DNA of 64,000 nt from Glaucostegus cemiculus. Its lineage: Eukaryota. The number at the start of each line of letters is the position of its first letter. Position 1 is the stretch's first letter. The position numbers were made by a program, and so were the translations under genes. Of the stretch, positions 3,435 to 62,032 are shown piece by piece. The notes beneath the pieces are model-generated. The model searched no databases, had not been told where the DNA came from, and was given only the letters and a program-made list of their open reading frames with translations. The stretch spans positions 37,448,001 through 37,512,000 of the forward strand of contig CDPCPM010000010.1 in the NCBI GenBank assembly GCA_976551045.1. The letters are read 5' to 3'.

Positions 3435-5884
3435 TCACCTCACCTCATTATTTACGTTGTAGTTGGAGACTTCGGACTTTATCATTCTTGCAATTTCATG
3501 ACCAATAGATTTATTCTGGGCAGAATGCTTTGCTGTAGATGGCCCGCAAGTCCGTGGCGTCGAGAAGTCTCTCTTCACCGACTGCAATGTTGAACACGAT
3601 TCGTAACGGAAACTCTGAGAATGTGGATCACCCCCGAATACCTCAGCATAGTTTGGTGGTATCTGAAGACTTCCAATGGCCTTTTGAATTCCAATTAGAG
3701 AATTCCCTGTTTTCAGACAACAGCAGACATTCTGAGAAACACAATGGACCCCACTCCATTTCTGTTTTCATGAACAGCCAGAATAACTAAAACCACGAGG
3801 AAAATGGTAGATCTTGTCCCCAAGGATATGACCAAGTAAAAGTTCAGATCAGGAGAGAACTCCGGATCTGTAGACAAACTAGTGGCACTGAAGATCGTTT
3901 CGTTTCCTTTGACAGTTAACACTATAGTCACAGTGGCAGAAAGGAGTGGCGGTCCATTATCTTTCACGACAATTAAAAGCCTTTGCTGAGAAGCGTCCTT
4001 GCTCCCAATAGCACGAATAGTGAAAACTTCTCCTGTGTCTGCTGAAATAGTGAACAGATGGCGATGGGTAGCCTGCAAAATGTGGTAAGACAGGCGGGCA
4101 TTCTTACCAGCGTCGGTGTCAGTAGCTGATACCTTGACAACGAGGTATCGCGGCTCAGCAAACCTGGATATTGTCTCCATTGCTGTTGAGCCGTATTGGG
4201 GTAAAGGATGCACGATCACTGGGGCATTATCGTTCTGATCAAGGATAACAACATCTACTGTAACGTTACTGGCGAGGGGCGGGTCTCCAGAATCCTGCAC
4301 CCGAAATTGAATCTGGAAGTTTTTCAATTTCTCGTAATCAAACGATCTCTTAGTAAGCATTACGTCAGTCTGTGAGTTGATGGAGACATATGGGGCTACC
4401 GATCAGTTCAGGATTGTAAAATTCATTCGGGCATTCTGTCCCATGTCTGGATCGAAGGCTGTCATGGAGAATATGGAATCCCCAATAATATTGTTTTCCA
4501 GGACCCTTGCTTTGTATACGTGCTGCGTCAACCTTGGTGCGTTATCACTTACATCTGAAACCTCCACGCGAATTGTTTTCTTCGATGTGAGGGGAGGGAT
4601 CTCTGTATCTGTGGAAGTCACAGCAATGTCATAACTGGACGTAGTTTCGCGATCCAATGTATGCTGTGTAAGGAGACGACAAATGTTTTTCAGAGAAGAA
4701 TCTAGCTTAAAGGGCAGCTTGCTTGAAATTTGACATTGTACTTGCCCATTTTGTCCAGAGTCTTTGTCATCTACTCCGAACAGTGCCACAACTGTTCCGA
4801 TCGAGGCATCCTCTGAGACTCTACTTGACGTGGATGTCAGGGTCAGGTAATGAGCATTGTCATTCACATCGATAACATCCAGTAACACATCACAGTGCTG
4901 GGGAATTGCGTCAGGACCATTGTCGATTGCTTGAATATTAATCTCAATAAACTTGTTTTCTTCGTAGTCCAAACGCCCTTTCAGTCTGATTTCCCCATTT
5001 CGGGAATTCACGCCAAATACTCCACGGAATCTTGCTGAATTATGCCCAGTGAGGGAGTACGTTATCTCGCCGTTAGAGCCGTCGTCCAAATCAGTGGCGT
5101 TTAACGTAATAATCAAAGTTCCTATGGGAGCAGATTCCAATAGACTTACGCTATAAACAGCCTGCGAAAAAACAGGAGCGTTGTCGTTCGCATCCTTCAC
5201 TGTGATTGTTATTTGAAGCTTTCCTGATCTTGCAGGGACTCCGCTGTCTTCGGCAAACAACATTAATTCATGGGCTGATATTGTTTGTCTATCAAAAGGG
5301 CTCTGCAGCACTAATACCGGCAACTTTCCTTTCCTGATGCGTTCCTGTACTTCAAGAATAAAATATTCATTGTGAAGTAGCTGGTATGACTGCAAGGAGT
5401 TATTTCCCATGTCCGGATCGTGTGCGGCCTCGAGTGGGAATTGCGCTCCCGGTGCATTAATTTCGGAGATTTCCAGGCGGATTTGGCTTTTGGGGAATCT
5501 GGGAGCGTTGTCATTTACATAGAGAATCTACGCTTCCACCTGGTGCAGACTGAGGGGATTTTCAAGCAGAAGGTTTGAGGATAAAACACAATCGTTGCTC
5601 GGCCCGCAAAGCTGTTCCTTGTCGATTCTTTCATTCACAAATAAAATCCCATTCTCTAAATTTACGGCAACGTGCTGCTTCCTCGGAATGGGCGCCACCC
5701 GTAAACTGCGAGCCGACGGCTGCTTTAAATCTTACCCCATATCAATGGCGATATTCCCAACAAAGGCGCCCAGTTACAATTCCTCGGGAACAGAATAACG
5801 TATCTGGCCATAAGCAAGATTCCAGCGGGAGAACAAACAGGAAATCAGTAGGCATTTCAGCAGCCAATGTATGTTATATCTCAT
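3435..5884 (-). pseudogene. Clustered protocadherin variable exon pseudogene (paralog of 20347-22836)
   Basis: ATG at 5884 (MRYNIHWLLK...GQIRYSVPEEL). In-frame stops at 5774-5776 (CAA>TAA, codon 37), 5732-5734, 5528-5530 and 4403-4405, plus a 1-bp frameshift near 3750. Cadherin motifs (DxNDNAP, LDYE, LDRE) occur in ORFs 4403-5410 and 3713-4360. Donor GAG|GTGAGG at 3444/3443. Confidence 0.93.
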
Positions 5885-6067: not shown

Positions 6068-6280
6068 GGAGCTGCTGGGCCGCCAGTTTCACGGCGTCTG
6101 AGCTTACGCGAAGGCGGCTGGGTATTGACGGTCACCAGATCATCAGTCACATCTCAGCTTCTGATTGGTTGACAATGTAGTAATCATATTTGACCAACTG
6201 GAGTTAATCTCATTTCTTAAAGCAAGTCGTGGATAATTTGGAGAAGTGTTTTCATATTTATTGCTGCAAAACTGAAATTT
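6068..6280 (-). promoter_or_regulatory. Pcdh promoter cassette (decayed copy)
   Basis: Plus strand: gagctgctgg...gaaggcggctg...ATTGG(6164)...CCAAC(6194, CCAAT mutated)...TTCTTAAAGC(6214)...ttgctgcaaaactgaaattt. Same block as upstream of the other five units. Confidence 0.7.
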
Positions 6281-16115: not shown

Positions 16116-16297
16116 TGCCAGCAGAAGTCATTCCAATGGTTTTAGGCCCTGACTGTATTCTTCATTGTCCTCTTAGCGGCGTTAAATAGAACAAAACGAT
16201 ACAGAAAATACTAGTCCCTCTTGCCAATCGCTCGCATTATTTCATTCAAATACTTGCATTTTTCCGAGCTGCGGGAGCAATCCTGCTAAAATCCCAC

Positions 16298-16511
16298 GGA
16301 GCTGCTGGCTGTTCAGTTTTCACTGTGTCTGATGTTACGTGATGGCGGCTGAGTCATAAAGGGGGCTGTTCGGATCACTCATCACATCTCAGCTCCCGAT
16401 TGGTGGAAAACTCATTAGTATACGACCAATCAAGACTTTGCTTGTTTCTTAAAGCTGTAAGGACTTAAAGTTGGGCAGAACCGTTGTATTATTGTTGCAC
16501 AACTAAAATTT
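16298..16511 (-). promoter_or_regulatory. Pcdh promoter cassette
   Basis: Plus strand: gagctgctgg...acgtGATGGCGGCTGAGTCAtaaagggggctgttcggatcac...ATTGG(16399)...CCAAT(16426)...TTCTTAAAGC(16446)...ttgttgcacaactaaaattt. Confidence 0.8.
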
Positions 16512-19500
16512 ATTTCAGCCTTGTGGAAAAATCATTGTTCTGGTTTATGTTCGATAAATCCAGTTCTCGTATCTATCTATGAATTATTTACTTAAAGACC
16601 AAGTGTGAAGAAACAGTGAATGGAGGTAAAATAGATATAAGGAATAATAAGATGCTTAAGAATGCAATTCTATTTTTGAAACACATAATCTCATTCTTTC
16701 TTGACTTTCCTGCAGCCCAGAAAGGCAGATGTATCCATATCATTCAAGAAAGGCATCAATTGATCTTATCGAGTGTTTCTCGTTTTTCGAAAGGAAGTTT
16801 ATTGGGACGACTATTCATACCTGGATATTTAAATGAACAAAATATGCATGTGGAAATACGCAGGTGTTGCAACAGAAATAATCTTGGAAATATTCGTTTG
16901 GTCAGGCAACATCAGTGAAAGGTAAACTACTTCTGTATCATGCTTTAAAGAATTTGTTGGAAAGGAAGTGTCAATATCGAACACAAAATTATGTCCTAAG
17001 ATGGCGTTGACTATTTTCATGACTTGAAACAGAGTACCTACCAAGACTGTTTCTCCGGTGTTTATCAGCAATAAACACTGAAAATCAACCAGGTGATTTA
17101 AACTTATATTGTTTGATCACCACAGAAGTCGGGTTTATTTAATTATTTAGCCTCCGTCTGTAGATCTTCAGGACGATACCATCTTAGTCATTGCGTGAGG
17201 TCCACTTAACAAGTGGACCTCAAGCTTTTGTTTTCCTCAGCATCCAAGTGGCAGTAATTTTGAAGTTCGGAAGGTAGTTTGCCTGAAACATCCTGTGAAG
17301 TCCAGAGATCATAGGGTTCACAAGTTGGGGACCATTTGAATGACCCTCGCATGTATTGGGAGTACTTATTTCAACCTTAGTTCGAAAACTTAAGCTACTG
17401 AGTCTTGCAAAGGAAGACCACTTTTTTGTTGCAGTGTGAATGGTGGGTGAGTTTGACAAGTGGGCAAGCAGCTCACGTCTACCATCAGATTTGCGGTTGT
17501 GTTTTCCTCACTCTGAACTTAGGAGATCCCGACAGGGAATGATTTTCTTGCTGGTCAGGTTTCTTGGTCGCTTCCGCTAACGAAACTCCTCTGAAAGCTT
17601 TGTTGGCAGGTAAAGCTTTGCCAACTGTCGTAGATGCCATGCCATTTAAAAGCTGTTAAATATATTTGAAGCTAGAACGTAAATATATCGAATAATTAAG
17701 TAATAATTTCTATGAATGAACGCTTGAAAACTGAGTGAAAATTAGTTGCAAAGATCTTCAGTCAGTCAAAACGACTTAGAAACTTTGAACTAAATCAACA
17801 CAATGAAAAAGTTCTGAAACATTGCCTTCTTCGGGGACTTCTTTGGCCCATCAGGATAAGATTGGAAAAATGGACATTTGCTGCTAATCACATAATAACC
17901 CGTTTTCAGAATTCCTCTGCAACAACCAGTGCTCGCAGGGAGAAAGTCCAGGACTACTTACTTTCAAGTATGCAGTGACAAATGACATTCAAACATGGCA
18001 ACGGTTGTACATTGGGCGTCACTACAACTGAAGAGTATCCAAGCTCCCTTTGCATTACATCACATTACACGGTTGAAATCATGGGCATTAACATCCGAGA
18101 TTTACCTTAAACAAGGTAGGTTGATAAATATAGATAAAAGGAAAGGCCAAAGTGTGGATACTTAGCAATGGTAGTCTCACTTCCTCATTGTCCGAAACTT
18201 ATCGATTAACTGTAAGGAACCTGGCAGTATTGTGATTGAGCAATTTATAGTTGTTTTGATACGTAACTTCAACAACATTCAAATCATACGAAACCATCGA
18301 AGACAAAGGTTCCTTTACTTTAAATCACCACATCAGAGACCGAGATTTCTTTATCTCCATAACACGCATTATGATATCTGCTTGCACTGCTTCAAGCGCA
18401 AATTTTAAATATCTGTATCTGTAACCTCAATGAATCAGGACAACAGACTGGTGATAGCATGGTAACATCCAAAGGTCCATTCAGTCAGACTATTTGGAAT
18501 TGAAATATACATCACTGCCTCAGTATAATCACGGTCAAAATCGAAAAACTCACAACAAAGTGCGTATGTGTGGGAGTGTATTATCAACGTCTTGACGACT
18601 GGAATTCAAGATAATCATAGAGTCACAGAGCAAGGGAATAGGTTCTTTGGTCAACCATGTCCGTGCCAACTTTCAACTACCCACCTATATTAACTACATT
18701 TAAAAGCCTTTGTCTTCCGCGATTTGACAATTCGAGTGCTGGCATGCATACATCTGAAAGATTGTTGGAGGACCAATTTCAGCCACTCACTATTGTTGTG
18801 TGTTCGCATTATCACAATAATCTCAGTCCTGACGCAGAGTCTCGACCGGAATCATTGACCACCCATTTTCCCCCGTAGATGTTGCTTATCCCGCTGAGTT
18901 CCTGCAGCGGTTTCTCTTTTTTTCTTTTCCAGTTTCCAACGCCTGGTGTTGGAACATAAAGTTATGTCACCTAGTTTTTGACACGTTTGTTACAGGGAAA
19001 CATTTCCAACTACCTAGTCTTGCACGTCATAACTGAAAGAGGTCCTTCCTCAAACTCCGCTGCTCCAATAAAAACAAATCTGACACCAGTAGTCTCTCTT
19101 CATAACTGGAACTCTCTAGAGAAGACATTATATGGCGAACCTCATTTGTAATATTTCTAGTACCATCAGGAGTTCCCATTTTGTTTTGACCAGTACTGCA
19201 CACGGTACTGCATTTGAGGCTTAACCATTAAACAATGTAGCAGACCTTTTTGTTTCTATCCAATACTCCAGCAAACGAGATCTTCTATCACGCACATTTT
19301 ATACACCACAAATCAAATGTGCTGCCAGTTTCAGGGATCTCCATGTTCCCAGTGCTCACTGGAGTAATACTATTCAGTGAGAATGCTATTCCCTTGTTTT
19401 TCCTCCCAGAGTGCATCACCATGCATTCATCAGGATTAAATTCTGTCTCCCATTGGTGTTCCTCGTTAATGCTTTCTCAAGGGGATAACGGATAAATAAC

Positions 19501-20346: not shown

Positions 20347-22836
20347 CTAACTGTATGTCAATTTCGATTGTTTTTGGAAGCACCTCACCTCAGTGTTTAC
20401 ATTGTAGTTGGAGGCTTCAGACATTATCATTCCTGGCTTCTCTTTCCCAATAGGTTTCTTCTGGGTACAACTCTTTGCAGTAGATAGCCCACACGTTTGT
20501 CGCGGCGTGAAGTCTCTCTTCACAGACTGCAATGTTGAACACGATTCGTAACGGAAACTCTGAGAAAGTGGATCACCCCCGAATACCTCAACATAATTCG
20601 GTGGTATCTGAAGACTTCTGCTGGCCTTTTGAATTCCATTCAGCGAGTTCCTTGTTTTGAAACAACAGCAGACATTCAGAGTACCACAATGATGCCCCAC
20701 TCTAGTTCTGTTTTCACGAACCTTAACAGCCAGAATAACTAAAACCACGAAGAAAATGATAGATGTTGTCGCCAAGGATATGACCAAGTAAAGGTTCAGA
20801 TCAGGATTGAACTCTGGATCTGTAGACAAACTAGTGGCACTGGAGAATGTTTCACTCCCTTTGACAGATAGCACTATTGTCACAGTGGCAGAAAGTGATG
20901 GTGATCCGCTATCTTTTACGACAATCACCAGCCTTTGTTTTGAAGCATCCTTGCTGCCAATACCACGGATAGTCCACACTTCTCCCGTGTCTGCTGAAAT
21001 AGTGAACAGATCGCGATGGGTAGCCTGAAAAATGTGGTAAGACAGACGGGCATTTTGACCAGCGTCGGCGTCAGTAGCTGATATCTTGACAACGAGGTAT
21101 CCCGGTTCAGCAAACCTGGATATTGTCTCCATTGCTGTTGATCCATATTGGGGTAAAGGATTCACGATCACTGGAGCGTTATCGTTGTGATCAAGGACAA
21201 CAACATCCACTGAAGCGTTACTGGTGAGGGGCGGAACTCCAGAATCGTGCACCTGAACTTGGATCTGGAAGTTTTTCAATTGTTCGTAGTCAAACGATCT
21301 CTGAGCAAACATGACACCAGTCTGTGAGTTGATGGAGACATATGGGGCTGCGGATGAACTTAGGATAGTAAAGTTCAGTCGGGCATTCTCTCCCATGTCT
21401 GGATCGAAGGCTGTCAGAGAGAATATGGAATCCCCAATAACGTTGTTCTCCATGACGCTAGCCGTGTATACGGACTGCGTAAAGCTTGGTGGGTTATCAT
21501 TTACATCTGAAACCTCCACACTAATCGTTTTCTTGGACGTGAGGGGAGGGCTCCCTGCATCCGTGCAATTTATAATAATATCAAATCTGGAGGTAGTTTC
21601 GTGATCCAGTGTATGCTGTATAAGTAGTCTGTAAATGTTTTTCTCAGATGAATCCAGCTTAAAGGGCAGTTTGTTTGAAATTTGACACTGTGCCTGCCCA
21701 TTTTGTCCAGAATCTTTGTCATCGACACTGACCAGTGCCACAACCATTCCGACCGAGGAATCCTCTGGCACTGTACTTGACGTGGACGTCAGGGTCATAT
21801 CAGGGGCATTGTCGTTCACATCGATAACATCCAGCAACACATCACAGTACTGGGGCATTGCGTCAGGACCATTGTCGATCGCTTCTATGTTAATCTCAAA
21901 AAAAGTGTTTTTTTCATAGTCCAAATGGCCTTTGAGTGTGATTTCACCTTTTTTGGAATCCACGCGAAATAATTCACGAACGTTTGCTGAATTATGGCTG
22001 CTGAGTGAATACGTTATCTCGCCATTAGCGCCATCGTCCAAATCAGAGGCATTTAATGTAATAATTAAAGATCCTATTGCAGCCGATTCCAACAGACTTA
22101 CGCTATAAACCAACTGAGCGAAGACGGGAGAATTGTCGTTCGCATCCTTCACGGTAATTGTTATCAGGACCTCACCCGATCTCACAGGGACTCCGCCATC
22201 TTCGGCTAACAATGTTAACTCGTGTGCTGGTGTTGTTTCTCTATCCAAGGGTCTCTGCAGCACCAACACTGGTAACTTTCCTTTCCTGCTGCGTGAGCGC
22301 ACATCAAGAATGAAATATTCATTGGGAAGGAGCTGGTATGACTGCAAGGAATTAGTCCCAGTGTCCGGATCGTGTGCGGTCTCGAGTGGGAATCGCGCTC
22401 CCGTTGCCATAATCTCGGAGATTTCCAGGCGGATCTGGCTACTGGGGAAACTGGGAGCATTGTCATTTACATCGAGAATCTCCACTTCCACCTGGTGCAG
22501 ACTGAGGGGATTTTCAAGCACAACGTTGAAGGTTAAAACGCATTCAGCTCTCGGCCTGCAAAGTTGCTCTCTATCGATTCTTTCATTTACAAATAAAATC
22601 CCCTTCTCCAAGTTTACGTCAACATACTGCTTAGTCGGACTGGGCGCTACACGTAAACTGCGAGCAGACAGCTGCTTTAAATCTAACCCCAAATCAATGG
22701 CGATATTCCCAACAAAGGCGCCCAGTTGCAATTCCTCGGGAACAGAATATCGAATCCGCCCAGAAACAAGATTCCAGCGGGAGAACAAATAGCAAAGCAG
22801 TTGGTATTTCAGCAGCCAATATATGTTATATCTCAT
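20347..22836 (-). CDS. Clustered protocadherin variable exon, intact (829 aa to read-through stop; donor at 20389)
   Basis: Signal peptide; EC1 GRIRYSVPEE...DREQLCRPRAEC; six EC repeats; TM LYLVISLATTSIIFFVVLVILAV; conserved VCD; GAG|GTGAGG donor. Confidence 0.96.
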   Translation of the reverse strand: MRYNIYWLLKYQLLCYLFSRWNLVSGRIRYSVPEELQLGAFVGNIAIDLGLDLKQLSARSLRVAPSPTKQYVDVNLEKGILFVNERIDREQLCRPRAECVLTFNVVLENPLSLHQVEVEILDVNDNAPSFPSSQIRLEISEIMATGARFPLETAHDPDTGTNSLQSYQLLPNEYFILDVRSRSRKGKLPVLVLQRPLDRETTPAHELTLLAEDGGVPVRSGEVLITITVKDANDNSPVFAQLVYSVSLLESAAIGSLIITLNASDLDDGANGEITYSLSSHNSANVRELFRVDSKKGEITLKGHLDYEKNTFFEINIEAIDNGPDAMPQYCDVLLDVIDVNDNAPDMTLTSTSSTVPEDSSVGMVVALVSVDDKDSGQNGQAQCQISNKLPFKLDSSEKNIYRLLIQHTLDHETTSRFDIIINCTDAGSPPLTSKKTISVEVSDVNDNPPSFTQSVYTASVMENNVIGDSIFSLTAFDPDMGENARLNFTILSSSAAPYVSINSQTGVMFAQRSFDYEQLKNFQIQVQVHDSGVPPLTSNASVDVVVLDHNDNAPVIVNPLPQYGSTAMETISRFAEPGYLVVKISATDADAGQNARLSYHIFQATHRDLFTISADTGEVWTIRGIGSKDASKQRLVIVVKDSGSPSLSATVTIVLSVKGSETFSSATSLSTDPEFNPDLNLYLVISLATTSIIFFVVLVILAVKVRENRTRVGHHCGTLNVCCCFKTRNSLNGIQKASRSLQIPPNYVEVFGGDPLSQSFRYESCSTLQSVKRDFTPRQTCGLSTAKSCTQKKPIGKEKPGMIMSEASNYNVNTEVRCFQKQSKLTYS

Positions 22837-23019: not shown

Positions 23020-23236
23020 GAGCTGCTGGCTAGGCAGTTTTCACGGCGTCTGAGCTTAAGCGATGGCGGCTGAGTAATGAAGTGGGCTGTGCAGATCACC
23101 AGTCACAACTCGGCTTCTAATTGGTTGAATATGTAGCAATCATATTTGACCAATTGGAGTGCAGCTCATTTCTTAAAGCTAGCCGTGCATAATTTGGAGC
23201 AGAAGTGCCATATTTCTTGCTGCACAACTGAAATTT
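23020..23236 (-). promoter_or_regulatory. Pcdh promoter cassette
   Basis: Plus strand: gagctgctgg...GATGGCGGCTGAGTAATgaagtgggctgtgcagatcacc...ATTGG(23120)...CCAAT(23150)...TTCTTAAAGC(23170)...ttgctgcacaactgaaattt. Confidence 0.8.
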
Positions 23237-29663: not shown

Positions 29664-32126
29664 TCACCTCACCTCAGGAACAATGTATTTTTCAGAATTC
29701 AACATTCCAGTATTTTCTTTCCCAACAGATTCACTCAGTACAAATTTCTTCTCTGCAGAATTTCTACATCTGCTGGGGAAGGTCAAATCTCTCCTGGTAG
29801 ACTGCAATGTCGAACATGACTCGTAACGGAATCTTTGGGAGAGAGGGTCGCCCCCAAACACTTCAACATAGTTCGCTGGTATCTGAAGGCTTTTACTTTC
29901 CTTCTGAATTCCATTCAAAGAATGTCTTGACTGAAGACAACAACAAGTACCCAGAGAATGGTGCTGGTAAACATTCCTGTTTTTGTGAACTTTAACGGCG
30001 AGGGTGACTAAAACTATGAGGAAAATGCTGGATATTGTTCCCAAAGCTATAACCAAGGAAAGGCTCAGTTCAGGAGCGAACGCCGGGTCTGAAGACGAAC
30101 TGCTGACACTGGAGAAAATTTCACGATCGGTTCCAACCACAGATAATACTATAGTCACAGTGGCAGAGAGTGATGGAATTCCATTATCTTTCACCGCAAC
30201 CACCAGCTTTTGTTTTGAGAAATCCTTGTTTAAAATTCGACGGATAGTCCAAATTTCGCCAGTGTCTTCGGAAATAGTAAAAATATCACGATGGGTGGCC
30301 TGAGCAATTTGATAAGTGAGACGAGCATTCTGACCAGAGTCAGCATCAGTGGCCGATACCTTGACAACCAAAGAACCTGGATCTGTGAACCTGGATATTG
30401 TTTCTATTGCTGTTGACCCATATTCAGGTAAAGGGTGTGTAATCACTGGGGCATTATCATTCTGATCAAGGATAACAACATTCACTGAAGCACTACTGTT
30501 GTGCGCTGGTGCACCAGAGTCCCGGACGTGAACTTGGATCTGAAAGTTTTTCAGTTGTTCATAGTCAAAAGATCTCTGAGCATAAATGATACCACTCGAC
30601 GAATTAATTGAGACGTAAGAAGTTATTGATGAATTCTGAACCAGAGACTCGAGGATAGAAAAGTTCAGTCGGGCATTTTGACCGATATCTGGATCTAAGG
30701 CCGTCAGGGAAATTATGGAAGCCCCAATAACATTGTTTTCCATAACATTTGCCGTGTAGATTGGCAGCGAAAACCTTGGTGCATTGTCATTTATATCTGA
30801 AACCTCGACCCGGATTGTTTTCGTTGAACGGAGAGGAGGGTCCCCCTTATCTGTGCATATTATGGTAATATCATACTTGGGGGTACTTTCGCGATCCAAC
30901 GCACGCTGTATAAGGATTCTGTAATAGTTCTTTATGGAGGGATCTAGCTTAAAGGGTAATTGGTTTGAAATTTGACAATGAACCTGACCATTTTGTCCTG
31001 AATCTCGGTCTTCTGCACTAAACAGAGCCACGACAGTCCCAAGTGGAGCGCTCTCTGGAATGGTATTTGAGGAAGACCTTAAAATCACCTCTGGCGCGTT
31101 ATCATTCACATCGACAATTTCCACCAATACGTTACAGTACTCGGGTATAGCGCCAGCACCCTTATCTATTGCCTGTATGTTAATCTCATAGACACTGCTT
31201 TCTTCATAGTCCAACTTTCCTTTGAGTCTTATTTCACCTGTTTTTGTGTTCACCTCAAAATATTTACGGGCCAAGGCAGAAATATGGCTACTAAAAGAGT
31301 ACATTATTTCTCCATTTGCACCATCATCCAGGTCTGTGGCGTTTAATCTGAGGACCAGCGTGCCTTTCGGTGCCGTTTCTAACACACTGACCCTGTAAAT
31401 CGACTGAGAGAATACAGGCGCGTTGTCGTTTACATCTTTTACTGTGATTGTAATCTGAATGGTTCCCGATTTCGGAGGCAAACCGCCGTCCTTGGCTGTT
31501 AACGTTAATCTGTGTGTTGCCATCATTTCTCTGTCCAAAGGCTTCTGTAACAATAATACTGGCAACTTGTCTTTCCCACTGCGCGTTTGGACATCCAGAA
31601 TAAAATATTCATTCGGCTGCAGCTGGTATGTTTGCAAGGCGTTAGTGCCAATATCCGGATCCAGTGCCGGTTCAAGAGGAAATCGCATTCCCGGTGATGC
31701 AGATTCAGAGATGTCAAGACTGAACTGTTTTTTGGGGAAAATGGGGGCATTATCATTTACATCGAGAATCTCCACTTCCACTTGGTACAAACTCAGGGGG
31801 CTTTCAAGCACAACGTCTAAGGATAAGCGGCAATCGAGATTCGACCCACAAAGCAGTTCTCTGTCGATTATTTCCTTCACAAATAGAACCCCATTGTCCA
31901 TATTTACGTCGAAATACTGCTTCCTTGCACTGGGCGCCACCCGCAATCGGCGAGCCTTCAGCTGCTTTGCATCTAAACCTAAATCTCCTGCGATTTTTCC
32001 AACAAAGGCTCCCAGTTGCAGTTCTTCAGGAACAGAATAACGAATCTGCCCCGAGACAATACCCCACGAGCAGAACACACAGCACAACAATTGGCATTTT
32101 AGCAACCAATATATTTTATTTTTCAT
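29664..32126 (-). CDS. Clustered protocadherin variable exon, intact (820 aa to read-through stop; donor at 29673)
   Basis: Same architecture as 13647-16115, its closest paralog. DRELLCGSNLDC; six EC repeats; TM; VCD; GAG|GTGAGG TGA. Confidence 0.96.
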   Translation of the reverse strand: MKNKIYWLLKCQLLCCVFCSWGIVSGQIRYSVPEELQLGAFVGKIAGDLGLDAKQLKARRLRVAPSARKQYFDVNMDNGVLFVKEIIDRELLCGSNLDCRLSLDVVLESPLSLYQVEVEILDVNDNAPIFPKKQFSLDISESASPGMRFPLEPALDPDIGTNALQTYQLQPNEYFILDVQTRSGKDKLPVLLLQKPLDREMMATHRLTLTAKDGGLPPKSGTIQITITVKDVNDNAPVFSQSIYRVSVLETAPKGTLVLRLNATDLDDGANGEIMYSFSSHISALARKYFEVNTKTGEIRLKGKLDYEESSVYEINIQAIDKGAGAIPEYCNVLVEIVDVNDNAPEVILRSSSNTIPESAPLGTVVALFSAEDRDSGQNGQVHCQISNQLPFKLDPSIKNYYRILIQRALDRESTPKYDITIICTDKGDPPLRSTKTIRVEVSDINDNAPRFSLPIYTANVMENNVIGASIISLTALDPDIGQNARLNFSILESLVQNSSITSYVSINSSSGIIYAQRSFDYEQLKNFQIQVHVRDSGAPAHNSSASVNVVILDQNDNAPVITHPLPEYGSTAIETISRFTDPGSLVVKVSATDADSGQNARLTYQIAQATHRDIFTISEDTGEIWTIRRILNKDFSKQKLVVAVKDNGIPSLSATVTIVLSVVGTDREIFSSVSSSSSDPAFAPELSLSLVIALGTISSIFLIVLVTLAVKVHKNRNVYQHHSLGTCCCLQSRHSLNGIQKESKSLQIPANYVEVFGGDPLSQRFRYESCSTLQSTRRDLTFPSRCRNSAEKKFVLSESVGKENTGMLNSEKYIVPEVR

Positions 32127-32320: not shown

Positions 32321-32529
32321 GAGCTGCTGGATATCCAGTTTTCACTGTGTCTGATCTGACGTGATGGCGGCTGAGTCATGAAGGGGCTGTTCGGATCACC
32401 AATCACATCTCTGCTCCTGGTTGGTGGAGAAACTCATTGATATTCCGCCAATCAGAAATATGCCATTTTCTTAAAGCAAGTCAGACTTAAAAGTCCACGG
32501 ATACATTTATTGTTGTACAATTAAAATTT
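32321..32529 (-). promoter_or_regulatory. Pcdh promoter cassette
   Basis: Plus strand: gagctgctgg...TGACGTGATGGCGGCTGAGTCATgaaggggctgttcggatcaCCAAT...GTTGG(32420)...CCAAT(32448)...TTCTTAAAGC(32468)...ttgttgtacaattaaaattt. Confidence 0.8.
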
Positions 32530-46351: not shown

Positions 46352-48853
46352 TTAGAGTTTGCCTTTTGTTTTGAAAAACCTCACCTCATTGTCTTCAGTC
46401 TTACTGTAATTATCAGAATTTGTCACTCTGATGTATTCCTTCCCAATGGACTCATTCCTGACGCAATCATTTCCGGGAGATGATCTGCGCGTGTTTGGAT
46501 TGACCAAATCTCCTTTCATCGACTGTAATGTTGAGCATGATTCGTACCGGAAACTCTGGGAAAGTGGATCTCCCCCAAATACCTCAACATAGTTCGGTGG
46601 TATGTGAAGGCTTCTACTGGCCTTCTGAATTCCATTGAAAGAATTTCTTGTTTCTAAACAGCAACAGATACCAAGGAAACCGTGCTGGTCTCCCAAACCT
46701 CTCCTATCTTTATGAAGTATTGAGGCGAGGATAATTAAAACCATCAGGAAAATGGCAGAGATTATCCCCAAAGCGATTACCAATGAAAGGCTTATATCAG
46801 GAGTTAACCCAGCATCGTTAGACAGACTGGTAACACTTGAGAACGTTTCACTATCCCCGTCTACCACAGTTAATAACATAGTCAATGTGGCTGAGAGTGA
46901 CGGAGTTCCATGATCTTTTACCACAATCACCAGTCTTTGTTTAGTGGCATCCGTGTTCGCAATTTGACGGATAATCCAAATTTCACCAGTATCTAACGAA
47001 ATAGTAAAAAGATTAGAATGTGTAGCCTGCAGAATATGATAAGAGAGACGAGCGTTCTCTCCGGCATCCGCATCGGTAGCCAATATCTTTGCAACCAAGT
47101 ATCCTGGTTCTGCAAATCTGGATATTGTTTCTGTTGCTGTTGACCCATATTCGGGCAAAGGATTCACGATCACTGGGGCGTTATCATTCTGATCTTGGAT
47201 AACAACATCCACTGAAGCGTTGCTGGTGAGCCGTGGGACTCCACAATCCTGCACTTGAACCTGAATTTGAAACTTCTTTAATTGTTCGTAGTCAAGAGTT
47301 CTCTGAGCAAATATTTCGCCACTCTGTGAATTAATAGAGACAAAAGTAGAAATTGGGGTGCCCTGGAAATGCGTCGGTAATATAGAAAAAAATAATCGAG
47401 CGTTTTCCCCCACATCTGGATCAAAGGCTGTCACCGAAAATATAGAAGCACCAATTATATTGTTCTCCTTAAAACTTGCTGTGTATACAGGCTGCGTAAA
47501 TCGCGGTGAGTTGTCATTTATATCCGACACTTCTATCAGAATATTTTTCTTGGAAGTTCGTGGAGGGTTACCTGCATCCGTGCATGTTATAGTAACATCA
47601 TACCTGGAGACATTTTCGCGATCCAGCACATGATTAATGACTAGTTTATAGTAATTTTTCTTGGATGAATCCAGTTTAAATGGTAGTTTATTCGAAATTT
47701 GACATTGTACGTGTCCATTTTTTCCCGAATCTTTATCAGCTGCAGTGAATAAAGCCACTATACTCCCAAGAGGGACGTCTTCAGGAACGGCACTTGAAAT
47801 CGATCTTAATTCCACATCAGGTGCGTTATCATTCACATCAACGATGTCCACGAAAACATCACAGTGCTCCGGTATTGCCCCAGAACCCTTGTCTATTGCT
47901 TGTACGTTAATCTCAAAGGCACTGTTTCTTTCATAATCTAAAACTCCTTTAACTCTGATTTCACCAGTTTTGGAATCCACGTCAAATAGTTCACGCACTA
48001 TCGCGGAACTGTGGCTACTGAAGGAGTACGTTATCTCGCCATTGGGACCATCGTCCAAGTCGGTGGCGTTTAATCTGATGACTAATGTTCCCTGGGGAGC
48101 AGATTCCAGCAAAGTAATCCTATACACTGACTGGGGGAAAACAGGCGCGTTGTCGTTTACATCTTTCACGGTGATTGTAACCTGAACCGTGTCCGATCTC
48201 AAAGGAACACCGCCGTCTTTCGCTATTACCATTAATTTATGTTTTGATATCCTTTCTCTGTCCAAGGGTTTCTGTAGAACCAATACGGGCAGCATTCTTT
48301 TGTCACTGCGCATTTGTACATCCAAAGCAAAATATTCATTCGGAAGAAGCTGATACGTTTGCAATGAGTTAGTCCCAATATCCGGATCGTGCGCGGACTC
48401 GAGAGTAAAGCGCGTTCCCGTGGCGGCAATCTCAGAGATTTCAAGGCGGATATGGTTCTTCTGAAAACTGGGGGCATTGTCATTTACATCAAGAATCTCC
48501 ACCTCCGCCTGATACAGGCTTAATGGATTTTCTAACACCACGTCCAGGGATAAAACACAATCGAGATTCAGCCCACAAAGCTCTTCCCTGTCGATCATTT
48601 CCTTCACAATTAAATTGCCATTCCTCAAATTTATATCGACATATTGTTTGCTCGGCCCAGCCGTTACTCGTAAACTGCGAGCTGACAGCTGCTCCACATC
48701 TAAACCCAAATCGGCAGCGATGTTCCCAACAAAGGCGCCTAAATGCAGTTCTTCAGGAATTGAATACCGAATCTGCCCAGAGCACATGTTCCCGGCGGAA
48801 AGCACAAAACATAGCAGTTGGTATTTCAGGAATATATGTATTTTATAACTCAT
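46352..48853 (-). CDS. Clustered protocadherin variable exon, intact (833 aa to read-through stop; donor at 46385)
   Basis: Signal peptide; GQIRYSIPEE...DREELCGLNLDC; six EC repeats; TM LSLVIALGIISAIFLMVLIILASIL; VCD CCC...NYVEVFGGDPLSQSFRYESC; GAG|GTGAGG donor. Confidence 0.96.
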   Translation of the reverse strand: MSYKIHIFLKYQLLCFVLSAGNMCSGQIRYSIPEELHLGAFVGNIAADLGLDVEQLSARSLRVTAGPSKQYVDINLRNGNLIVKEMIDREELCGLNLDCVLSLDVVLENPLSLYQAEVEILDVNDNAPSFQKNHIRLEISEIAATGTRFTLESAHDPDIGTNSLQTYQLLPNEYFALDVQMRSDKRMLPVLVLQKPLDRERISKHKLMVIAKDGGVPLRSDTVQVTITVKDVNDNAPVFPQSVYRITLLESAPQGTLVIRLNATDLDDGPNGEITYSFSSHSSAIVRELFDVDSKTGEIRVKGVLDYERNSAFEINVQAIDKGSGAIPEHCDVFVDIVDVNDNAPDVELRSISSAVPEDVPLGSIVALFTAADKDSGKNGHVQCQISNKLPFKLDSSKKNYYKLVINHVLDRENVSRYDVTITCTDAGNPPRTSKKNILIEVSDINDNSPRFTQPVYTASFKENNIIGASIFSVTAFDPDVGENARLFFSILPTHFQGTPISTFVSINSQSGEIFAQRTLDYEQLKKFQIQVQVQDCGVPRLTSNASVDVVIQDQNDNAPVIVNPLPEYGSTATETISRFAEPGYLVAKILATDADAGENARLSYHILQATHSNLFTISLDTGEIWIIRQIANTDATKQRLVIVVKDHGTPSLSATLTMLLTVVDGDSETFSSVTSLSNDAGLTPDISLSLVIALGIISAIFLMVLIILASILHKDRRGLGDQHGFLGICCCLETRNSFNGIQKASRSLHIPPNYVEVFGGDPLSQSFRYESCSTLQSMKGDLVNPNTRRSSPGNDCVRNESIGKEYIRVTNSDNYSKTEDNEVRFFKTKGKL

Positions 48854-49061: not shown

Positions 49062-49275
49062 GAGCTGCGCACTACCCGATTTCATTCTCCTTCTGATTTT
49101 ACGTGATGGTGGCTGAGTAATGGAAGGGGCCGTCCGGATCACCAGTTTCCTTGCAGCTTCTGATTGGTGAACGTAGGCACAGTGTTTATCGGCCAATCAG
49201 AATTCCCATTACTTCTTAAAGCTGCAGTGCCTCAAAATTGGACAGTGCAACTGTATTTAATGTTGCACAACATAA
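49062..49275 (-). promoter_or_regulatory. Pcdh promoter cassette
   Basis: Plus strand: gagctgc...acgtGATGGTGGCTGAGTAATggaaggggccgtccggatcacc...ATTGG(49163)...CCAAT(49193)...TTCTTAAAGC(49213)...tgttgcacaac. Confidence 0.8.
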
Positions 49276-59180: not shown

Positions 59181-61641
59181 TTATCTTACCTCGCCACTTA
59201 CAGTGTTACTTTTGCTTAAGGACCTTGTATTCAATGGGTTTTTCTCTTTTCCCATGATTTCGCAGTCGATGTAATTCTCCCCAGTTAATGAACTGCTCGG
59301 TTTGGGAAACGACGCAGCTCTCTTCTCCGAATTTAAAGTTGAACAGGCCTCATAGCGGAACCTTTGAGAAAATGGATCCCCTCCAAACACATCAATGTAA
59401 TTAAGAGCTATGTGAATATTTCGGCTGGCGTTTTGAATCCCATTCAGAGAATTACTTTGTCCAAAGCAGCAACATATTTCCATATAGAATCCGGTATCAG
59501 CAAAACTACGCCTCTTCTGTTGAATTTTAAAAGCCAAGTTAATTAAAATTACGAGGAAAATCGACGATGTTATCCCCAAAGATACAATTAGGTGAAGACT
59601 TACGTCAGAATTAAAGTCAAAAATTTCAGACCGAGTACTTGTACCAGAAGTGAACTCGACAACCTGGCCCACGACTGACAAAGTTATGGTCACTGTAGAA
59701 GTTAATGATGGCGTTCCACTATCCTTGACTAAAACCAATAAGCGCTGTTTACTGCCATCGTGGCTTACCATCCGACGGGTAGTCTAGATATCGCCTGTGT
59801 CAGCTGAAATGGTAAAAAGTTCCGGAACGGCTACTTGCTTAATTTCATAAGACTCCGGCATTTTGGCCGGAGTCTGCGTCAGTAAAGATACCTTAGCAAC
59901 CAGGTATCCAGGTTCAGCGAAGCGAGGCACTGTCTCTGTTATTGTTGATCCAAACCCAGCCACTGGCTGCACTTTCACGGGGGCATTGTCATTCTGATCG
60001 AGAATGTAAACATCCACGGAAGCTTTGCTGTTAAGTTGTGGAACTCCAGAGTCTTGGACTTGAATTTGGATCTGGAAGTTTTGAAGTTGCTCTTAGTCCA
60101 GAGACCGTTGAGCAAATATGATTCCACTCTCTGAGTTAATGCCAACATAGGAGGTCGCTACCTCGTGCAGAATATGTGTCTCAAGGATGGAATAGGTTAG
60201 TAGAGCATTATGGTTTAAATCTGCATCGATGGCTGACACTTGGAAAATTGAGGTCCCAATGATATTGTTCTCCATAATGTAAGCGGTATATGAAGGTTGT
60301 GTGAAGCGCGGAGAGTTGTTATTTATATCAGAAACCTCCATCAAAATTGTTTTGTTGGAAGATAGTGGTGGGTTCCCTGCGTCACGGCATGTGACAGTGA
60401 CGTCGCATTCAGAGACGATTTCGCGGTCCATTTGTCGCTGTTTAAGCAGTCTTTAATAGTTCTTTAAAGATGATTCGAGCCTGAAGAGAAGTTCATTCCC
60501 GATTTCACATTCTACTTGTCCATTTTCACCAGAATCCTTGTCGGCTGCGCTGAACAGGGCCACAACAGTACCAGATGGAGCATGTTCACTAACTGGACTG
60601 CACAAAGAAGTGAAAGTGACTTCAGGGGAGTTGTCATTCTCATCAATGATATCCACCACAACATCACAATACACGGGCACTGCAGCAGAACCCTTGTCGA
60701 CAGCTTGCACGTTAATGGCGTAGACATTGCTTTCTTCGTAGTCCAGAGAGCCTTCAAGAATAATTTTACCAGTTTTAGAATCTACCGAAAACAGCTGCAA
60801 CACTTTAACTGCTGTCCGGCTGCTGAATGAGTATTCAATTTCTCCATTAGAACCAGCATCGAGATCAGTTGCACTTACTTGGATCACCATTGTCCCTTTC
60901 CAATAGTGTGACGTTGTAAGTCGATTGCAGGAAAATAGGGAAGTTGTCGTTTGCATCCTGTACTTTCACAGCGATCTCTGCCGTACCTGATCTTTCGGGA
61001 GATCCGCTGTCTTTGGCTACAAGAACTAACCTGTGGATTGACTGCTTTTCTTTATCCAGAGAGCTTTCCAAAACCAAAAGCGGAAACATCCCCAAACGTG
61101 TCTCTACATCCACAATAAATTAATCGTTCGGAAGGAGATGATACTTTTGCACCGAATTGACTCCGACGTCTGAGTCGTGGGCGGATTCGAGGGGAAAGCG
61201 CGCACCAGGTGCCACAACCTCAGAGATTTCAAGGCTGAGGTCGGTCTTTGGAAATCTGGGAGCATTGTCGTTGATATCCAGAATCCACACTTCAAAATGG
61301 TACAAATTAAGTGGGTTTTGAATCACGGCCTGTATCGATAGGACGCAAGCGAGACGAGGCCCGCAAAGCTGTTCTCTGTCTATTTTCCTATTCACGAATA
61401 AAATCCCGTTGTCTAAATTTACTTCCAAATACTGTTTATTGGTTCCGGCCACAATTCGCAACCTGAGAGACGAGAGCTGGTTTACATCTAACCCCAAATC
61501 GACGGCGATATTCCCAACAAAGGCTCCTGGTTGCAGCTCTTCAGGAATTGAATACCGAATCTGCCCCAAAACTGGATACCATAACGACAATATGTGGAAC
61601 AATAATTTCCATTTTAGCCACAGTATTATTTTATATCTCAT
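59181..61641 (-). pseudogene. Clustered protocadherin variable exon pseudogene (divergent subtype)
   Basis: ATG at 61641 (MRYKIILWLKW...GQIRYSIPEE...DREQLCGPRLAC). In-frame stops at 61120, 60453, 60093 and 59784; frameshifts near 60900 and 59850-59885. TM and VCD in ORF 59181-59771. Donor GAG|GTAAGA at 59190/59189. Confidence 0.92.
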
Positions 61642-61864: not shown

Positions 61865-62032
61865 TGATGGATGATGGGAAGAGAAGGGGGCAGTCCAGAT
61901 CACCAACCAATTTTTAGTTTCTGATTGGTTGCTAGATGAACTCGCGTATTCAACCAATCAGTATACTTCTCACTTCTTAAAGCAATGATGATGCATCATT
62001 GCTTCGCATTTGTTGTTGTACAATTAAAAATT
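61865..62032 (-). promoter_or_regulatory. Pcdh promoter cassette (divergent proximal half)
   Basis: Plus strand: gaagggggcagtccagatcacc...ATTGG(61924)...CCAAT(61954)...TTCTTAAAGC(61974)...ttgttgtacaattaaaaatt. Confidence 0.75.

Follow-up and report, generated by a model that had tools for sequence, protein, structure and literature searches.

We analysed a 64,000-nt stretch of the Glaucostegus cemiculus genome (the window; contig CDPCPM010000010.1, here C10, positions 37,448,001–37,512,000), which belongs to nu, the last subcluster of the clustered protocadherin (Pcdh) locus. The window contains six clustered-Pcdh variable exons, all on the minus strand, of which four are intact (820–833 amino acids) and two are broken. 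Its promoters sit directly 5′ of these large cadherin-repeat exons, which form part of a tandem array closed off by shared constant exons. Ray and skate proteins are the nearest to those of the window exons (up to 80% identity); the 120 matches listed for the window proteins include C. milii Pcdh nu8, nu9, nu13, nu15 and nu17. In a protein search of the genome, Pcdh exons span 37.33–38.72 Mb of C10, a lower bound because 150 of 503 candidates were scored, with constant-region tails at 37.265, 37.670 and 38.691 Mb. The nu constant exons lie at 37.319, 37.307 and 37.265 Mb and match the P0001 and C. milii nu17 tails. In the last of them (C10 37,264,680–37,275,690), one reading frame matches the tail of C. 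milii and a different frame that of a predicted isoform from a batoid, and two extra exons lie near it, at 37.276 and 37.268 Mb; this arrangement suggests alternative C-terminal tails.

DNA was read continuously over 37.05–37.79 Mb and as 4-kb stretches around 40 further exons, the whole locus measuring about 1.4 Mb. Seventy-two promoters were anchored and, with one pseudogene that has no recognisable promoter (37,566,195) left out, 71 were scored: 27 of the nu clade, defined below, and 44 others. Two singleton exons and one orphan promoter were treated apart, outside these counts. The features of one intact nu-clade promoter, on which the analysis is centred, and the promoter cores of the other five units of the window are listed in Table 1.

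Table 1 Parts of the focal promoter and promoter cores of the other units, in window coordinates
Feature	Position	Strand	Remark
Intact nu-type variable exon behind the focal promoter, 822 amino acids	13647..16115	-	Open reading frame; closest to Pcdh proteins of batoids (80% identity)
nu-specific proximal element, sense CCRCCATYRCRT then AGATCAG	16329..16357	-	CCATYRCRT in 19/27 nu-clade, 0/44 other promoters
GATC (16373-16376), 27 bp after sense CCAAT, then C-rich box	16359..16376	-	Spacing of 27 bp in 26/27 nu-clade, 34/45 other promoters
Sense CCAAT, 3′ end kept from the ancestral CSE; predicted to bind NF-Y	16399..16403	-	Same position as CCAAT of CGCTGTCTACCAAT in upstream subclusters
Hinge: eroded CSE/CTCF-core zone; former CGCT position 16409-16412 reads AGTT	16404..16425	-	Identity 0.31, variable length
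Antisense CCAAT (sense GATTGG), predicted NF-Y site	16426..16430	+	Identity 0.76 among deep paralogs
GCTTTAAGAA (plus-strand TTCTTAAAGC), locus-wide invariant box	16446..16455	-	Exact in 26/27 nu-clade promoters
Distal TGYRCA(A) box, in most cases 46-52 bp 5′ of GCTTTAAGAA	16493..16502	-	TGYRCA in 24/27 nu-clade, 23/44 other promoters
Promoter core, pseudogene unit 1 (ATG 5884; codon 37 is a stop; part of the C-rich box deleted)	6138..6223	-	
Promoter core, unit 3 (exon 20347-22836, intact)	23094..23179	-	
Promoter core, unit 4 (exon 29664-32126, intact)	32394..32477	-	
Promoter core, unit 5 (exon 46352-48853, intact)	49137..49222	-	
Promoter core, pseudogene unit 6 (ATG 61641, stop after 173 amino acids, frameshift near 60898)	61898..61983	-	

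An earlier reading of the window, made from its letters alone (the sequence-only reading), had described a rigidly spaced promoter cassette in all six units, and each copy indeed lies upstream of a minus-strand Pcdh variable exon. The box that it called invariant, TTCTTAAAGC, is exact in 6/6 units, with 0.21 expected and 0 of 100 shuffles reaching six, and the composite CCAAY-N15-TTCTTAAAGC likewise occurs in all six with 0 expected. The ‘20 bp’ given between CCAAT and TTCTTAAAGC is right as a start-to-start distance but not as a gap, as 15 bases lie between them. The CCAAT pair departs from its consensus in two units, with CCAAC in unit 1 and GTTGG in unit 4. The distances from ATTGG to CCAAT measure 30, 27, 30, 28, 30 and 30 bp, within the 27–30 bp reported, and the position of CCAAT at 310–340 bp from the ATG was also borne out in the window units. 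Two further motifs ascribed to all six units, GATGG(C/T)GGCTGAGT and TGTTG(C/T)ACAA, were each found in exact form in four. Of two proximal motifs said to have decayed in the pseudogenes, only the most proximal has done so in unit 6, where the C-rich box is intact. Genome-wide, the composite has 39 matches, 22 of them in the Pcdh cluster and 17 scattered, several of the 17 being one repeated sequence. In both window pseudogenes, GCTTTAAGAA, the CCAAT pair and GATC are almost intact, so that either the inactivation is recent or the promoters still act.

A promoter scaffold common to the locus

Most of the 71 promoters share one scaffold, which in the sense direction consists of TGYRCA, GCTTTAAGAA, CCAAT, GATC and the C-rich box. 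Among the 44 promoters outside the nu clade, the DNA between GCTTTAAGAA and CCAAT follows the consensus TGYAG...TTGTGTCGCTGTCTACCAAT at a fixed length: TGCAG (at most one mismatch) stands at −37 in 30/44, and CGCT stands 9 bp before CCAAT in 38/44 (CGC in 41/44). Three exons on the 5′ side of the nu subcluster itself (two intact, one broken), which fall outside the nu clade, also retain CGCT. The exact 18-mer of the CSE is present in 28 copies genome-wide, all of them in the Pcdh locus and all on the gene strand. GCTTTAAGAA is exact in 21 of the 44 promoters and within one mismatch in 33, CCAAT and GATC are 27 bp apart in 34 of 45 other promoters, and the C-rich box is also present beside intact CSEs.

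In mammals, the CSE of Pcdh promoters is described as a forward CTCF site (PMC3333863 and bioRxiv 2023.09.27.559875, both in excerpt). From the CGCT box, the upstream motif and this mammalian literature, we infer that the TGCAG...CGCT element is the CSE, and thus the CTCF site, of the ray. By our own count the CC position of the CTCF core follows the first base of TGCAG by 17 nt, and the count is equal on the IL3 CTCF site, which has been footprinted and whose probe sequence is printed in PMC12885311 (excerpt). A CGCT element in the elephant shark cluster is mentioned in an excerpt of PMC2926608, citing Yu et al. 2008. Against a generic CTCF matrix, used for all generic scores below, the intact ray CSE has a median score of −2.8 bits (p ~2e-3 to 7e-3); because even an intact CSE scores poorly, a low generic score does not by itself exclude CTCF at nu promoters. 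Further searches gave six metagenomic loci with the CSE 19-mer, none of which carries a Pcdh exon, and no match within two mismatches to the NRSE motif of PMC2926608 (excerpt) over ~744 kb, with an exact CAG.ACC seed required.

A few promoters and exons stand apart from this pattern. A complete CSE-bearing promoter at C10 ~38,112,930 (L109) has no N-terminal Pcdh match behind it, and its downstream DNA resembles a truncated, broken cadherin exon. Singleton exons at C10 38,515,632, 38,721,820 and 37,651,066 group together (support 95, with a Pcdh on contig C248), and the three (L107, L108 and L034) carry degenerate CSEs, much like C-type exons. The promoter of the 38.516-Mb singleton has a short downstream element that is also seen in nu promoters.

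Loss of the CSE in the nu clade

The 27 exons that lie closest to the nu constant region, including all six of the window, form one clade in a quick tree (SH-aLRT 99). Two such trees were built, a first with 58 intact exons, 23 of them from the nu clade, and a second with 47 rows, from which 23 near-duplicates were left out. In the second, five C. milii nu proteins and three shark proteins nest inside the nu clade and the CSE-bearing genes lie outside it on several branches. None of the 27 nu-clade promoters has CGCT at the homologous place, as against 38 of the 44 others, and the copies being related, this count stands for one inherited event and not for 27. TGCAG at −37 is found, with at most one mismatch, in 1/27 compared with 30/44, and remnants such as CGTT and CATT persist in the clade. 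In the six window units, where the absence of CGCT had already been pointed out, the place reads CATT, AGTT, CATA, GTTT, CTAC and ATCT. The description of these units as being without a CSE holds for the part 5′ of the plus-strand ATTGG, which is eroded, but not for ATTGG itself, which is the 3′ end of the CSE (CGCTGTCTACCAAT in other subclusters). A CSE model trained on the other promoters gave at least 28 bits to 39 of 44 held-out promoters; on this model trained at the locus, nu promoters score −4.2 bits or less on either strand, like upstream control DNA. The generic matrix finds no forward CTCF-like site at p<1e-4 in any of the 27 nu promoters between −120 and +110 of CCAAT, in keeping with the sequence-only reading.

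Around the lost element the cassette is conserved. We compared 12 nu promoters that represent deep paralogs, with an identity at fourfold sites of 0.41 over the ten intact ones. Identity among the 12 is 0.98 for GCTTTAAGAA, 0.76 for RATTGG, 0.88 for ACCAATCAG and 1.0 for GATC; it is 0.31 in the old CGCT zone, 0.27–0.38 in spacers and flanks and 0.27–0.28 in far upstream DNA. The cassette aligns at 0.63, against 0.51 when shuffled, and upstream windows align at 0.52–0.54, against 0.52–0.53 when shuffled, so that the cassette is more conserved among distant paralogs than adjacent non-coding DNA, the reverse of what the sequence-only reading had said would refute it. These sequence comparisons support strong purifying selection on the cassette among distant paralogs. 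Contigs of two other organisms cover window positions 16,270–16,530 at 80% or more, and one of them has nil depth over 16,566–16,750, which, paralogs being included in the depth, is a weak hint in the same direction.

The spacing of the cassette divides it into parts. In 25 of the 27 nu promoters GCTTTAAGAA and ATTGG are 25 bp apart, and in 26 CCAAT and GATC are 27 bp apart. The ATTGG-to-CCAAT stretch, by contrast, measures 27–30 bp in 23 exons, 19–20 bp in three and 25 bp in one pseudogene, in which the anchor is uncertain, and the old CSE zone within the clade takes deletions of 1–11 bp. Because the arms are fixed in length and the hinge is variable, two rigid halves flank a flexible hinge located exactly at the former CSE. 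‘Rigidly spaced’ is therefore apt within each half but not between the CCAAT boxes (19–30 bp over the clade), and the proposed structure, in which TTCTTAAAGC keeps a constant distance from a pair of opposed CCAAT boxes, extends over the nu clade. The antisense CCAAT has been sharpened in this clade from an ancestral TTATTGG, which overlapped the upstream CTCF motif, and the proximal element CCATYRCRT is new in it (Table 1). Observed/expected CpG ratios are similar, 0.88 in nu promoters and 0.98 in the others, and thus give no sign of methylation-driven decay of whole nu promoters. The labels that the sequence-only reading attached to other words of the cassette find little backing, since TGACTCA (AP-1) occurs in 2/27, TGACGT (CRE) in 4/27 and the full YY1 consensus word in 0/27 nu promoters.

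In these sequences the loss of the CSE is specific to the clade and not an alternative common to cartilaginous fish, because 38 of 44 neighbouring promoters keep CGCT on the same scaffold. The most parsimonious course, which rests on the quick tree, is that the CSE was lost once at the base of the clade, before the chimaera–elasmobranch split.

Driving nu-clade promoters

We consider it probable, from the sequence comparisons above, that the nu-clade core promoter is the locus-wide Pcdh scaffold with a decayed CGCT/CSE, and that it works without a CTCF anchor, under the control of two CCAAT boxes (predicted NF-Y sites) placed back to back. Since a 27-gene family has lost the promoter element bound by CTCF in mammals, the family is likely switched on in another way, via the CCAAT pair. 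We assign the CCAAT boxes to NF-Y presumptively, from the consensus. Each box would be bound by NF-Y facing outward, with a partner just beyond the NF-Y footprint, so that each half would comprise NF-Y and an adjacent factor on a CpG-rich promoter; NF-Y would in that case open the nu promoters, and enhancers would contact them with no loop anchored at the promoter. NF-Y contacts are reported to span −7 to +17 of the first C (PMC4982600, excerpt), and with these limits the first base of TTCTTAAAGC falls 3 bp outside the stretch that NF-Y would cover at the antisense box. The shortest hinge, 19 bp, leaves 14 bp, enough for two −7 contacts, and 19 bp would be the minimum for two back-to-back NF-Y trimers if the contacts reach −7. 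Known NF-Y CCAAT-dimer promoters, as described in the same excerpt, resemble those of the nu clade in that a C-rich box lies close to two CCAAT boxes separated by some three helical turns; their 31-bp peak, however, concerns direct repeats, whereas the nu boxes stand back to back at 19–30 bp, with outer partners at fixed distances.

If so, the locus might, in cartilaginous fish, harbour two systems of promoter choice side by side, one CTCF-anchored and serving most subclusters, the other free of CTCF and still stochastic, serving the nu-clade exons through NF-Y pairs and a GCTTTAAGAA-binding factor that would be a core component of Pcdh promoters over the whole locus, and both maintained for ~400 million years. 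We put this forward tentatively and think it unlikely. Stochastic choice of Pcdh promoters is a textbook case of CTCF/cohesin looping, and 27 exons without the anchor beside ~40 with it constitute an internally controlled natural experiment, which could tell whether stochastic, monoallelic choice depends on the anchor or whether the anchor just adjusts how promoters are used. The comparison also points to GCTTTAAGAA as a strongly conserved, so far unnamed box of Pcdh promoters. Frog, zebrafish and mammals, however, offer precedents that restrict the impact. A literature search by topic, not by the letters of the boxes, returned no description of a CSE-less nu clade or of GCTTTAAGAA, and a prior description is possible.

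One alternative is that nu promoters keep a functional CTCF site that has moved or been reversed, in the C-rich box 33 bp after CCAAT or in the exon, and that choice remains CTCF/cohesin-based. At +33 the C-rich box is the best reverse CTCF position in 16/27 nu promoters and reaches 7.7–8.1 bits (p<1e-4) in five, but all five belong to one young subclade, none of the six window units passes that threshold (best reverse scores of the four intact units, −0.4 to −5.4) and, as noted above, the box accompanies intact CSEs as well. We take this box more readily for a GC-box-type site than for the reversed CTCF half-site of the sequence-only reading. A forward CTCF-like 19-mer of 13.8–14.0 bits lies at +335 inside the coding exon of 10/27 related nu genes and could anchor those genes; it is, however, confined to one young subclade, it codes for ordinary residues, and conservation is as high in 9% of the 19-bp windows there. 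Strong sites over the nu array number 16 forward and 4 reverse, an excess due for the most part to this single paralogous site. Also in favour of this alternative, a CTCF orientation code is described for skates, which have genes for CTCF and cohesin (PMC10115646, excerpt). Overall, we judge a relocated CTCF site unlikely.

Some CTCF-like sites deserve mention in their own right. In the window the exonic 19-mer falls at 22483–22501 and 5531–5549, as a possible site or by chance. Three reverse CTCF-like sites (18.4, 13.3 and 14.8 bits) lie within 1.3 kb at C10 37,174,700–37,175,990 (L093), ~90 kb 3′ of the last nu constant exon, and are a candidate anchor for an enhancer, comparable to the downstream super-enhancer of mammals; the excess of reverse sites 3′ of the nu constant exons, 16 versus 8, is not significant (p=0.15). 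A strong forward CTCF-like site (10.9–14.9 bits) is present in EC2 of four upstream genes at C10 38.319–38.344 Mb (L077–L080), at the position of the mammalian exonic CTCF site. At that position the nu clade has no conserved site (scores −15 to 6), and these four genes are the only ones to score high.

Alternatively, the nu clade could be an expanded C-type group, like alphaC2, gammaC4, gammaC5 and Xenopus gamma2 15–36, expressed broadly and deterministically and not chosen. The nu clade stands last before the nu constant exons, and its promoters have a short downstream element similar to the one of the 38.516-Mb singleton. The mammalian CSE is described as absent from alphaC2, beta1, gammaC4 and gammaC5, mostly C-type exons, and C-types as constitutive and hypomethylated (PMC7811963, excerpt). 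A precedent is Xenopus tropicalis pcdh-gamma2 15–36, a block of 22 CSE-less exons sharing a 13-bp motif (PMC4978886, excerpt): as in the nu clade, a contiguous monophyletic block of more than 20 exons has another common motif in place of the CSE, with CSE-bearing exons alongside in the same cluster. The two may differ in that the Xenopus block groups with gammaC4/C5. When compared with mammalian isoforms in the PDB, nu and CSE-bearing protein profiles rank nearly alike, alphaC2 coming first among EC1–3 constructs for both, so that this ranking does not set nu apart, and nu is described as lacking a bony-vertebrate orthologue (an excerpt of PMC2764143). An expanded C-type group seems improbable to us, although its broad-expression half is compatible with a CTCF-free NF-Y pair promoter.

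Other known promoters can be set beside those of the nu clade in the same way. The mammalian CSE (PMC7811963 and PMC3333863, excerpts) is, like the ray cassette, a shared module at a fixed distance before each variable exon, and the ray promoters outside the nu clade resemble it in carrying CGCT on the gene strand, together with an upstream TGCAG at CTCF spacing; the 27 nu promoters differ in lacking CGCT and TGCAG, in tolerating deletions, and in their sharpened antisense CCAAT and new proximal element. YY1 binding beside the mammalian CSE is reported as well (PMC3333863, excerpt). Promoters without CGCT also include alpha promoters of zebrafish and Xenopus (PMC4978886, excerpt). The CSE-less mammalian cases are single exons, unlike the 27-exon nu clade, and the zebrafish and Xenopus alpha promoters are said to retain a CSE in divergent form; the nu zone, in contrast, has drifted to background.

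The sequence-only reading had gone further and proposed that cartilaginous fish as a group select Pcdh promoters by a composite of NF-Y and a TTCTTAAAGC-binding factor instead of the CSE. The composite is real and strongly conserved, but we regard this proposal as very improbable: CGCT is kept in 38/44 promoters outside the clade, including the three exons at the 5′ side of the nu subcluster, the exact CSE 18-mer is confined to the gene strand of this locus, and the CGCT element cited for elephant shark (PMC2926608, excerpt) lies in another member of the group. Nor is a role of TTCTTAAAGC as a substitute for the CSE supported, the box being locus-wide and adjoining intact CSEs (within one mismatch in 33/44). 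Finally, the idea that the copies are alike only passively, through tandem duplication of recent date or through gene conversion, as the short branches of several young nu subclades might suggest, is hardly credible and is refuted by the motifs of the deep paralogs, 0.76–1.0 identical against 0.27–0.38 in spacers and flanks, with upstream DNA no different from shuffled.

A second non-coding block, at window positions 16760–16980, ~650–850 bp 5′ of the ATG, can be aligned in each of the four sequence sets compared. It is separated from the cassette by poorly conserved DNA, and its part near 16880–16920 draws many contigs, in the manner of a repeat or a shared motif.
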